Below are positions 33,425 to 36,246 of a stretch of DNA of 64,000 bases, piece by piece. The notes beneath the pieces are model-generated. The model was given only the letters and a program-made list of their open reading frames with translations, did no database searches and had not been told where the DNA came from. Made by a program: the position numbers and the translations under genes. The stretch comes from an uncultured Bacilli bacterium (lineage in GTDB: Bacteria; Bacillota_I; Bacilli_A; RF39; UBA660): the NCBI GenBank assembly GCA_947632325.1, contig CANROU010000001.1, positions 7,997-71,996 on the forward strand, given 5' to 3'. Each line of letters opens with the position of its first letter. Within the stretch, counting starts at the first letter, position 1.

Positions 33425-34027
33425 GTGATTAGGATAAAGCAATTATTTTTAAATCACTCCTTGAAGTTGATAACCAAATATAATGAAAATTATACCGAAG
33501 AAGATATCGAAAAATTACAATATGGATTAGAAGGAGTATATTTAACCATAACCAAGCTAATTATTATTACTATAATATCTCTTTTACTTGGTATAGCAAA
33601 AGAAGTATTGCTTGTTTTAATTTTATTTAACGTGATAAGATATCCAGGATTTGGTTTTCACGCCAATAATAGCGTTACTTGTTTACTATTTTCTGCAATT
33701 GTTTTTTTAGGATTACCCTATCTTGCGGTACACGCTAACATTAATATTATAGCGCAACATATAATTTGTTTTATTTGCTTAATTAGTTTTGCTGTTTTTG
33801 CTCCAGCTGACACACCAAAACGGCCATTAACTAACCCTAAAAAGAGAAAATTAAGAAAAATAGCTACTGTTATTATTGCTATTATTTATATTGTATGTAG
33901 CTATATAATTAATAATCCATTAGCAACAAAACTAATACTTGTAGCTTTAATAATTGAAAGTATTATGATTAATCCAATAACTTATAAACTATTTAGGCAA
34001 CCATATAATAATTACAAAAAGGTATAA
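33425..34027 (+). CDS. agrB: accessory gene regulator B (AgrD-processing membrane peptidase)
   Basis: Multi-TM protein with the conserved RYPGFGFHANNSVTC (catalytic His/Cys) region typical of AgrB. Confidence 0.75.
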   Translation: MIRIKQLFLNHSLKLITKYNENYTEEDIEKLQYGLEGVYLTITKLIIITIISLLLGIAKEVLLVLILFNVIRYPGFGFHANNSVTCLLFSAIVFLGLPYLAVHANINIIAQHIICFICLISFAVFAPADTPKRPLTNPKKRKLRKIATVIIAIIYIVCSYIINNPLATKLILVALIIESIMINPITYKLFRQPYNNYKKV

Positions 34028-34087
34028 CTATTGATTTAAATACGATGAGTATTTAAATATATATTTGTAGCAAAGGAGGAAGAAATA

Positions 34088-34207
34088 ATGAAAAAAAGAT
34101 TATCAATGATTTTAGCTGCTGTAGCTATGATGGCAACTGCTGCTGCTTCAACTGGTTGTGTATGGTTCTTAGCTGATGAACCAAAAGCATTAAAAGATAT
34201 GGACTAA
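34088..34207 (+). CDS. agrD: AgrD-like autoinducing peptide precursor (39 aa, absent from the ORF track)
   Basis: MKKRLSMILAAVAMMATAAASTGCVWFLADEPKALKDMD. Amphipathic leader, Cys + 4 residues (CVWFL), then an acidic ADEPKAL tail. RBS AAAGGAGGA is 9 nt upstream. Confidence 0.7.
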   Translation: MKKRLSMILAAVAMMATAAASTGCVWFLADEPKALKDMD

Positions 34208-34212
34208 TAAAG

Positions 34213-34247
34213 ATCACACGCAATATAGCGTGTGATTTTTATTTTTT
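34213..34247. terminator. bidirectional rho-independent terminator between agrD and agrC
   Basis: ATCACACGC-aatata-GCGTGTGAT followed by TTTTATTTTTT. The agrC stop codon lies in the T-run. Confidence 0.65.
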
Positions 34248-35534
34248 ATCAAATTTTATTATTAATGTTTGTATATAGTAATCATTTATAATTTGTTGCC
34301 TACTTTCAAAATTTTTGTGTTTTATTAGTTTTTGAGCATAATATAAACCGTTACCATGCCCACTTCCTTTTGTCGTATATCCTTTATCATTGATTCTTTG
34401 AAAGTCAATTTTTCCCCTAAAAGTATTCGCAATCACAAAAACTAAAGCTTTGTTCATGATATATATTTCAATCGATATTTTTTTCTTTTTTGGTTTAGCA
34501 CTTTCCTCAATAGCATTATCTAGATATATTCCCATTAGTTGCCCCAATACTTTCCAATCATCATTAGTTAGCTTTTTATAATAAGACTTGGTTTTAGGAC
34601 TAACATCTGTTATAACAGTAATTTTATTCTTTCTAGCAACAGCCATCTTATAGTATAAAAGGCCTTTCAAAGTTCCTTTAGGTAAATATTTTAATTGTTC
34701 AATCCAGGTTTCTTCTATTCTAATGTTATCATTTAATATTTCATCTATCTTTTCAATCACTTGTTTATCTTCAGTAATATTGCGAATTGAACCTAAACTA
34801 TTTTTTAATTCATGTCGATTTAATTGTTCTGATTCAACCCAATCCTCAAAATCTTGCACATAATTGAATAATACTTCATATTCATGATTTAATTTATTAA
34901 AACTATTTTGCTCTTTTATATAAAACCACGCTAGCACAAAAAAGATTATGACAATTAAAGCGTTGTTAAATTTAGCATCATTTGTAGAAAAAGTTATTGA
35001 AATATTATATAACATAGCGCTAATTACTACTATTAGAGAAACTAGAAAAACAATTGTTGTCATTATTTTTTTTGCTTCTAAATTATTAATAAATTTATTT
35101 AATCTATCTTTTATATTTGGTATGCACGAAATAATTATAGCTATCAATCCAACTAAAAAATTAGTTATAATCATTAAAATAGCATTGCTTCGCATTTGTT
35201 CTACAGTAATTACAAAACTAAATCCCACGGATACAATAACATCTGAAAAAGTAATCATAATCATCAATATTCCAGTGGTAATAATAGATTGAGTAATTGA
35301 TAATTTAAAAATAAATTTATATGTTACTATCGTCCAAAAGAAAGTAATAATAGAAATCGTAATATTATATTGCGTTTGATAAAATAATAATGTTGGTATT
35401 GTTGATAATAATATTAAAGCAATATTTTTAAGATTTAATAACCTTTCATTACTCTTTAATATTTGTTTAATTACACAAAAGCCAGATATTGAAACCATAA
35501 TTGCGCAAATTAATTTAGCCATTAGTACTAACAC
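34239..35534 (-). CDS. agrC: AgrC-family sensor histidine kinase (HPK10)
   Basis: Six or more N-terminal TM helices. C-terminal HATPase with N-box IYLDNAIEES and G-box GSGHGNGLYYAQKLI. Confidence 0.75.
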   Translation of the reverse strand: MLVLMAKLICAIMVSISGFCVIKQILKSNERLLNLKNIALILLSTIPTLLFYQTQYNITISIITFFWTIVTYKFIFKLSITQSIITTGILMIMITFSDVIVSVGFSFVITVEQMRSNAILMIITNFLVGLIAIIISCIPNIKDRLNKFINNLEAKKIMTTIVFLVSLIVVISAMLYNISITFSTNDAKFNNALIVIIFFVLAWFYIKEQNSFNKLNHEYEVLFNYVQDFEDWVESEQLNRHELKNSLGSIRNITEDKQVIEKIDEILNDNIRIEETWIEQLKYLPKGTLKGLLYYKMAVARKNKITVITDVSPKTKSYYKKLTNDDWKVLGQLMGIYLDNAIEESAKPKKKKISIEIYIMNKALVFVIANTFRGKIDFQRINDKGYTTKGSGHGNGLYYAQKLIKHKNFESRQQIINDYYIQTLIIKFDKK

Positions 35535-36246
35535 GATTTATCAACTCCTTCTTTTTGTCTCTAGCAAGCAAGTGTGTATAGTCGTTGTTATCAAATATAA
35601 CTTTATTTTCTTTAACATTAATTTCCTTAATATGATCTAAATTAACTATCATACTGCGATGAATTCTCATAAATCTTTTATCTAATAATTTATAAACATC
35701 AATTAAACTTTTGGGAATATAACTACTGCCATAAGTTGTTTTTATTATGCATCTTTTACTATCTGGTTCTTTTTCAATACAAATAATATGTCTAAACTCA
35801 ATTTTATGAACATTATGATTGTATTCAAATGATAAGCTTTTATAGCGATTATCATAATTTTTCATTGCTTTGTTTAAGGCTTCAGTAACTCTTTTATCAC
35901 AGTCATCTAATTTATTAATAAAATCTAGTAAATATAAACGATTGCCAAGAGCTTCATATCTATATTCCCCAAATGCCGTTACAATAACGATTATAGAAAC
36001 CCAGTCATCATACTGTTCTCTAATTCTTCTAGCTGCATCTAACCCAGAGCCTTGTTTCGTTTTTATATCTAAGAAAAACACTTTAAAGCCAATATCTCCT
36101 TTTGCTACTTTTTCAAATTGAGCATCATAACCGTTAAAAGAATAAAATTTATAATCCATATCATAATTCATCATATAGTTATCTATATCTTTTTTCATCT
36201 TTTTTAAAAAATTAGGATCATCTTCACATACAATAAAATTTAACAT
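35515..36246 (-). CDS. agrA: LytTR-family response regulator (AgrA-like)
   Basis: Receiver domain (MLNFIVCEDD) plus C-terminal LytTR DNA-binding domain. Start at the ATG at 36246 after AAAGGAGGTT. Confidence 0.75.
   Translation of the reverse strand: MLNFIVCEDDPNFLKKMKKDIDNYMMNYDMDYKFYSFNGYDAQFEKVAKGDIGFKVFFLDIKTKQGSGLDAARRIREQYDDWVSIIVIVTAFGEYRYEALGNRLYLLDFINKLDDCDKRVTEALNKAMKNYDNRYKSLSFEYNHNVHKIEFRHIICIEKEPDSKRCIIKTTYGSSYIPKSLIDVYKLLDKRFMRIHRSMIVNLDHIKEINVKENKVIFDNNDYTHLLARDKKKELINRVSTNG

Follow-up and report, generated by a model that had tools for sequence, protein, structure and literature searches.

A convergently arranged agr-type peptide quorum-sensing locus in an uncultured Bacilli bacterium and its gut relatives

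In Staphylococcus aureus the four genes of the agr peptide quorum-sensing system form a single operon, agrBDCA, with a divergent RNAIII. Whether a locus in which agrB and a very small open reading frame (ORF) face the receptor and regulator genes on the opposite strand can be an agr system of the same kind is the question raised by a 64,000 nt stretch of DNA from an uncultured Bacilli bacterium (GCA_947632325.1, contig CANROU010000001.1, positions 7,997-71,996 of the forward strand). This whole stretch is referred to here as the window, and positions are numbered from its first base. An earlier note had proposed an agr-type locus with a genuine AgrD, and this is borne out by family models for all four genes together with comparative evidence. 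The window contains a complete, intact agr-type peptide quorum-sensing locus. Its four genes are undamaged both here and in four further samples of this species, which is carried by ERZ27249567, ERR10663741, and related samples, and it is very probable that the genes encode a functional system that has been split into two convergent transcription units.

The small ORF and its partner genes

The small ORF is present exactly where it had been placed, at 34088-34207 (+), and translates as the 39-residue peptide that had been quoted (MKKRLSMILAAVAMMATAAASTGCVWFLADEPKALKDMD), a candidate autoinducing peptide (AIP) precursor. It starts 60 bases past agrB and is preceded by a ribosome-binding site (RBS), AAAGGAGG, at 34072-34079. 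The peptide is made up of a leader (MKKRLSMILAAVAMMATAAASTG), a core of CVWFL(A) and a tail of (A)DEPKALKDMD, and its best family match is the NCBIfam AgrD model, TIGR04223. The description of agrD as unannotated holds for the ORF track on which the earlier note was based, but not for the NCBI, ENA, and Logan gene sets, where it has already been called as a gene.

A scan of species-representative genomes returned 396 loci with a relative of AgrB, the best 80 of which were compared, and the AgrD family was collected from the DNA adjoining the AgrB homologues rather than by a protein search with AgrD. A tblastn search picks up the small ORF at 77 of these 80 loci, and at 76 it was recovered as an ORF, far beyond what chance would give; in the other three the contigs end at or just after agrB. 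In a logo of 65 distinct full-length sequences, anchored on the Cys, the residues Ala(-4), Gly(-1), and Cys(0) never vary and Ser(-3) hardly does. From +1 to +5 the residues are hydrophobic but hypervariable, Trp being the main one at +2. Position +5 (2.95 bits) varies as much as the ring positions +1, +3, and +4, and the conserved block begins at +6, which is Asp or Glu in 61 of the 65 sequences and is followed by an invariant Glu(+7) and Pro(+8), so that the acidic tail with a conserved Pro, previously described for the one peptide, is a feature of the family. Among eight aligned agrD genes there are 57 synonymous and 19 non-synonymous codon differences in the tail, against 25 synonymous and 91 non-synonymous differences in the Cys+5 core. 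Purifying selection thus acts on the tail, while the core is diversifying, which is the signature expected of AgrD, and because of this comparative evidence across the loci the small ORF is judged to be a real gene.

Upstream of it, agrB (33425-34027, +) encodes a predicted membrane endopeptidase and cyclase for AgrD of 200 residues, which matches Pfam PF04647 over its full length (E=1.2e-34, model positions 5-184 of 185) and the NCBIfam AgrB-like model at 5e-35, yet under the cutoff of 282 of that equivalog. H79 and C86 are invariant in 25 aligned homologues, which are 52-77% identical to the AgrB of the window; their 7-residue spacing is presumably equal to that of H77 and C84 in S. aureus AgrB, the comparison being one of positions and not of a direct alignment. 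The protein has about 5-6 hydrophobic segments and 946 database homologues, and no relative with a solved structure was detectable by sequence, either with AgrB as a single query or as a profile. The GTG start (33425) lies inside a Shine-Dalgarno-like AGAGGTG (region 33421-33439), and the true start may be a non-canonical ATA at 33434 (ATA-AAG), which aligns with the 'MK' start of the relatives. The NCBI gene model begins at an internal TTG and has 186 residues, while in an ENA variant of the same species (L082) AgrB has 202 residues and the gap between agrB and agrD is shorter.

On the opposite strand, the kinase ORF extends over 34239-35534 (-) from a GTG, giving 431 residues, or over 34239-35522 (-) from an ATG at 35522, giving 427. 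The ATG is the likelier start of agrC because it overlaps the stop codon of agrA by 8 nt, and such a stop/start overlap is the usual sign of translational coupling. The product carries a HATPase_c_5 domain (E=5.7e-09) and its best PDB matches are to the kinase module of S. aureus AgrC (6e52, 4bxi), with the His and the G-box aligned; the H-box, RHELKN, aligns with the phospho-histidine motif FRHDYVN of that protein. The sensor (about residues 1-205) is polytopic, with about 7 hydrophobic segments in residues 1-202. On the strength of the catalytic domain, the H-box, and the polytopic sensor, this is an AgrC-type (HPK10) receptor histidine kinase, predicted to recognize the AIP. Adjoining it, agrA (35515-36246, -) encodes a 243-residue response regulator with Pfam Response_reg and LytTR (4.4e-14) domains. 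Its putative phospho-acceptor is the Asp in FFLDIK, which aligns with the receiver Asp of ComE, and the PDB matches are to ComE (4cbv) and to AgrA LytTR domains.

The two pairs of genes are separated by a putative shared bidirectional intrinsic terminator (34206-34243, stem 34213-34236), which is terminator-like on both strands. Its hairpin, of 9-16 bp and with an RNA fold of -21.2 kcal/mol, fills the 31-nt gap between the stop codons of agrD and agrC and overlaps the latter (34239-34241); the hairpin is flanked by an A-run and, at its opposite end, by a T-run. In the region 5 terminator-like sites were scored, where 0.8 would be expected. The earlier claim that agrBD and agrCA converge on one terminator agrees with these coordinates and with the score of the hairpin on both strands. 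Both the layout and the hairpin are also kept in the relatives, where the gap between agrD and agrC has a median of 26 nt and the A-run, hairpin, and T-run are seen in nearly all of 55 related loci. Judged from these loci, the shared terminator is conserved.

Conservation of the layout and co-variation of signal and receptor

All of the 80 loci are from uncultured gut metagenome-assembled genomes, labelled as Bacilli, 'Tenericutes', Candidatus Onthousia, Ca. Faecimonas, or Mycoplasma sp. CAG:877. The order common to their informative parts is secA-hpf-csp, then agrB-agrD facing agrC-agrA, then GT4-mreB-(spoIIID)-M23 peptidase. Of the 71 loci with enough sequence past agrD, 69 have an agrC-like sequence directly after it on the opposite strand; in nine further loci the contig runs on for no more than about 170 nt beyond agrD. 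The two exceptions, L054 (6760-7413) and L062 (1905-2787), have 650-880 nt past agrD with no recognizable agrC or long ORF; the receptor gene may have decayed there, as it has in agr-defective staphylococci, or the assembly may be poor. The co-directional staphylococcal order is present in none of the 80 loci.

Two other arrangements are seen among the relatives. In L007, L031, and L060 (about 6660-9450 in each) agrD and agrA are separated by a tandem pair of agrC paralogues, 35-46% identical to the AgrC of the window, and one regulator might here listen to two types of peptide. In the locus of Mycoplasma sp. CAG:877 (L038, 6857-7947) an IS3-like element with orfA and orfB transposase ORFs lies between agrD and agrC, where it replaces the shared terminator.

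Pairwise identities over 55 complete loci average 0.52 for AgrB, 0.55 for AgrA, and 0.50 for the kinase half of AgrC, against 0.28 for its sensor half. Pairs of loci in which AgrA is 95-99% and AgrB 90-98% identical have sensors that are only 22-34% identical, and in these the rings differ (for example, CVLFIV and CVWFCA). Where the rings are identical or nearly so (CVWFCA/CVWFCA, CVLFIV/CVLFII, CVLWLV/CIIWLV), the sensors are 84-93% identical. From these comparisons, the similarity of the AgrC sensor tracks that of the ring; these are pherotypes, the same phenomenon as the agr specificity groups of the staphylococci.

The extent of the exchanged segment can be seen in sliding-window comparisons of close genomes. 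DNA identity is 97-100% over csp, agrB, agrA, and GT4, drops to 40-70% in a stretch that begins midway in agrD and takes in the terminator and the entire agrC, and is about 99% again at the junction of agrC and agrA. What is swapped as a cassette is thus the core of agrD with the terminator and the full length of agrC, AgrB being common to the pherotypes. The convergent layout makes the agrD core and agrC physically contiguous.

At least 396 species-level genomes were matched, and agr is a fixed core locus of this whole clade of uncultured, genome-reduced gut Bacilli. Together with the diversification of pherotypes, this implies that there is signalling, and interference, within the clade in the gut among organisms that have never been grown. 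The family also provides dozens of short candidate peptides that could be synthesized directly to serve as probes or, perhaps, to help in cultivation.

Peptide processing and regulation

In the mechanism proposed for this locus, agrBD (+) would be transcribed from a promoter in the gap between csp and agrB, with transcription ending at the shared hairpin. The 39-residue AgrD would insert into the membrane by way of its KKR and hydrophobic leader, and AgrB (His79/Cys86) would cut off the acidic tail and link the new C-terminus to Cys24 as a thiolactone. Removal of the leader would then release a ring with probably little or no tail, for which the best guess, given the ring size and cleavage site suggested below, is CVWFLA. 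The extracellular peptide would bind the polytopic sensor of AgrC, which would autophosphorylate on the RHELKN histidine and pass the phosphate to the receiver Asp of AgrA. The LytTR domain of AgrA would activate target promoters, presumably including that of agrBD.

The leader had been described as amphipathic, a description that does not fit its composition. Its n-region is KKR and what follows is hydrophobic throughout, a signal-peptide-like makeup, and its maximum helical hydrophobic moment is 0.25, compared with 0.57 for what is taken to be the sequence of S. aureus AgrD. An amphipathic leader is a trait of staphylococcal AgrD, not of the AgrD family as a whole. Ahead of the Cys there is S-x-G, which fits the -3/-1 rule of signal peptidase and suggests a cut right at the Cys, one that would give a product with little or no tail. 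The ring of Listeria AgrD, CFMFV, is followed by YEPK. A tail-less AIP is documented in this genus (R5T0, the pentapeptide ring CFMFV, from agrBD expressed in E. coli; PMC4916163), and tail-less thiolactones are able to rearrange to cyclopeptides.

With respect to ring size, there are five variable residues between the Cys and [DE]-E-P, and a six-residue ring, CVWFLA, is more likely than the five-residue CVWFL that had been predicted. The spacing is that of C. acetobutylicum (CVWFLA|DEPK in the window, CVLVTL|YEPK in C. acetobutylicum, both C+5), and it is because of this match that CVWFLA is favoured, the ring in C. acetobutylicum and its relatives having been described as six-membered (R6T0). 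The predicted masses of the tail-less rings are 720.35 for CVWFLA and 649.32 for CVWFL ([M+H]+), and with a TG tail they would be 878.423 and 807.386, respectively. In the closest relatives, L001 and L002, the corresponding six-residue peptides are CVWFLC and CLWGIA.

Three other readings of the locus have to be weighed against an AgrB-cyclized, tail-less, six-residue ring in an autoinducing circuit. There is a definite, if lesser, chance that the product is a five-residue thiolactone, CVWFL, with an exocyclic tail of 2-5 residues, in which case Ala29 would be the first residue of the removed C-terminal tail and all else would be identical. A ring of five residues is seen in most characterized AIPs, and a signal peptidase cut that leaves a tail of two residues would likewise be permitted by A-A-S, with its small residues at -5 and -3. 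What weighs against six residues is that the distance from the ring to the Pro motif varies among known AgrDs, presumably including those of S. aureus and of C. perfringens, which is taken to have CLWFT|HQPEEPK. Against this, position +5 is as variable as +1, +3, and +4 and the conserved block starts only at +6; in the systems checked, conservation begins directly after the ring, and the distance from the Cys to EPK is that of the six-residue C. acetobutylicum class.

It is far less probable, indeed very unlikely, that the small ORF encodes a lipoprotein-type or Sec-type secreted peptide, the Cys being the +1 residue of a lipobox (acted on by Lgt and signal peptidase II) rather than cyclized by AgrB, or that both pathways compete for the Cys. 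The layout of n-region (KKR), h-region, and c-region with A-S-x-G|C, and the low hydrophobic moment, would fit such a peptide; one member of the AgrD family matches the NCBIfam 'lipoprotein' model NF038029 (E=0.0017), and a peptide made by ribosomes and modified after translation (RiPP) that uses the lipoprotein pathway has recently been described. Position -3, however, is Ser, whereas lipoboxes typically have Leu, Val, or Ile there; the small ORF always directly follows agrB, its acidic E-P tail of the AgrD type is invariant, the residues past the Cys co-vary with the AgrC sensor, and the best family match is to AgrD. The remaining reading, which is unlikely, is that the locus is intact and not autoinducing, with AgrCA constitutive or expressed by read-through from GT4 and mreB, such that it senses only the peptides of neighbours, or that it is silent in this strain. 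This would agree with the lack of LytTR repeats found upstream of agrB or agrA, with a gap of only about 50 nt between the GT4 terminator and the agrA RBS in which there is no clear -35 or -10, and with the apparent loss of agrC from L054 and L062, since this indicates that decay occurs in the lineage. The intact state of the four genes, in the window and in the other samples of the species, and the patterns of purifying and diversifying selection argue for continued use.

A broader proposal, rather unlikely to hold in full, gives the AgrD Cys of this lineage a dual role as thiolactone nucleophile and as the +1 residue of a lipoprotein-type or Sec-type signal-peptide cleavage site. A general signal peptidase would cut at G|C and leave the six-residue ring without a tail, and this ring may rearrange to a homodetic cyclic hexapeptide. 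The convergent layout would hold the core of agrD and all of agrC in a single cassette for recombination, which would allow pherotypes to be exchanged against a fixed background of generalist AgrB and AgrA.

The promoter of agrBD is expected in the divergent csp-agrB intergenic region (33190-33424). A candidate extended -10, TGaTAGACT, is present at 33396-33404, and TGnTA(A/G)ACT is kept in the closest relatives, L001 and L002. Just upstream is a weak T-rich direct repeat with 21-nt spacing, CCCTATTTTT (33348-33357) and GCCAATTTTT (33369-33378), which is at best a candidate for the LytTR repeats that the earlier note had suggested looking for here, since it is not conserved in L001 and L002 and is only marginally above shuffled sequences. 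The divergent csp promoter, with a conserved extended -10 (TGCTAAAAT, 33243-33251, -), is in the same region, and in every relative the csp and agrBD promoters are placed back to back in a span of about 150 nt.

Motif and repeat searches were made over 81 regions upstream of agrB and 61 upstream of agrA, and in these no conserved LytTR-type direct repeat was found. Repeats with 18-24-nt spacing are only about twice as frequent as in shuffled sequences, k-mer enrichment returned mostly the RBS and the extended -10, plus a motif, TTTCGACAAAAT, that is absent from the window, and nothing consistent is common to the agrB and agrA promoters. Autoinduction can only be presumed because no conserved LytTR repeat was found upstream of either gene. 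This negative result is one of several observations that weigh against a functional agr system. There is no S. aureus AgrA box (ACAGTTAAG-N12-ACAGTTAAG), even with 3 mismatches, and no Rfam RNAIII match, nor any other meaningful Rfam match, in 32000-37500 at E<=1. The best NCBIfam model for the regulator is AgrA (NF046049), at 62.3 bits against an equivalog cutoff of 400; by this measure the protein is AgrA-like and not an equivalog of staphylococcal AgrA. The AgrD of the window passes TIGR04223 marginally, with 19.5 bits against a curated cutoff of 19, and this model is matched by 19 of 53 members of the AgrD family (E<=0.01, best 9.6e-08). That only 19 of 53 match also shows that the AgrD genes of this clade often escape naming.

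The region upstream of agrCA (36247-36326, -) contains, in the order of that strand, the GT4 terminator hairpin (36300-36321), a palindrome, TTGGAAAATATTTCCAA (36265-36281), and the RBS AAAGGAGG. This palindrome, TTGGAA-N5-TTCCAA (17 bp), has exactly two copies in the 64 kb, where 0.02 would be expected and where none of 100 shuffled sequences had two, although the pattern was picked after one of the sites had been seen. The second copy, at 17306-17322, is just past the terminator of a pcsB-like gene and about 100 nt upstream of the promoter of a type VII secretion system (T7SS) gene cluster. The flanks of the two copies are alike (AAAAATAATT(T)GGAAA...TTTTCCAA), and a degenerate copy, TTGGAA-N5-TTCCTT (TTGGAATATTTTTCCTT), is upstream of agrB at 33304-33320. 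In the relatives the GT4 hairpin and the first TTGGAAA are kept, and the palindromic form is found only in this species. It could be a common operator or a small hairpin.

The earlier note had added that the genome also carries T7SS toxins and sporulation genes, as typical outputs of agr, and this is verified in part. The genes of such a context are present: SpoIIID is encoded at 38520-38795, and an island at 829-17165 encodes a 1531-residue EssC-like FtsK/SpoIIIE ATPase, DUF4176 proteins, WXG100 proteins (one fused to LysM), and three large toxin-like paralogues of 780, 1230, and 590 residues, which share sequence with each other and with proteins that have ADP-ribosyltransferase-like or transglutaminase-like ends. 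No orthologues of the large toxin-like proteins were found in the relatives, and in the closest of these (L085, L086, L088) the site after ftsE-ftsX-pcsB has tRNA-binding or uvrB genes instead. The region looks like an accessory island. That T7SS or sporulation genes are outputs of agr is speculation, to which the common palindrome gives the sole hint.

At the head of the T7SS/toxin cluster is a gene (14823-17165, -) whose promoter is of textbook form, with TTGACA at 17217-17212 and TATAAT at 17195-17190. The spacer between them is 16 nt and holds nine consecutive G (17210-17202), in a genome very rich in AT, such that one extra G would give the optimal 17 nt. Homopolymers placed in this way between promoter elements are a classic arrangement for phase variation by slipped-strand mispairing.

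Comparison with known agr systems

At the level of sequence, and leaving aside the direct repeats of the agr promoter, this locus has every defining feature of AgrB, of AgrD, of AgrC, and of a LytTR regulator that is open to analysis in silico. Those specific to the staphylococci, namely the single operon, RNAIII, the amphipathic leader, and an AgrA equivalog, are not. With S. aureus agrBDCA the locus shares the four components, an AgrC for which that of S. aureus is the nearest relative of solved structure, the LytTR domain of AgrA, and a hypervariable segment of signal and receptor. In place of a single operon with a divergent RNAIII there are here two convergent units with one terminator, and the search for RNAIII in 32000-37500 gave no match. 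The variable cassette of the staphylococci comprises the 3' end of agrB, agrD, and the 5' end of agrC; here it is the agrD core and the whole of agrC, including the kinase domain, while AgrB is 90-98% identical across pherotypes. The leader is hydrophobic and not amphipathic, the ring probably has six residues, and the AgrA box ACAGTTAAG is absent. The agrBDCA of Listeria monocytogenes has a tail-less AIP, as is predicted here, but is a single co-directional operon with a five-residue ring, and C. difficile agr2 has been treated as one polar unit.

The AgrD of C. perfringens and C. botulinum is presumably much like that of the window, being short, with a hydrophobic leader of the MKK... kind, residues of small size immediately ahead of the Cys, a tail of the form E-P-K-x-L, and an active peptide that lacks a tail; its ring, with Trp at +2, is taken to have five residues, followed by HQP. 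In these species no adjacent agrCA is known, unlike here, and C. perfringens signals through VirSR.

The agr locus of C. acetobutylicum, likewise from a spore-forming member of the Bacillota, also has its signal and response genes in separate transcription units, and in its AgrD, as here, five residues separate the Cys from x-E-P-K (CVLVTL|YEPKMP, compared with CVWFLA|DEPKAL). It differs in being arranged as three apparently co-directional units (agrBD; agrCA; CA_C0082), whereas the genes here are convergent and no LanM-like gene follows, and in an AgrD of 54 residues, compared with 39 and a signal-peptide-like leader here. Clostridia are already known to have agrBD and agrCA in operons of their own and rings of six residues, and many AIP families have been reported from human gut genomes in large surveys; no description of the convergent agrBD/agrCA layout was found in the literature, access to which was incomplete. 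The kind of system is textbook and there is no new biology in principle; what this locus adds to the known agr systems is a layout for which no earlier description was found and a clear diversification of pherotypes across the clade.

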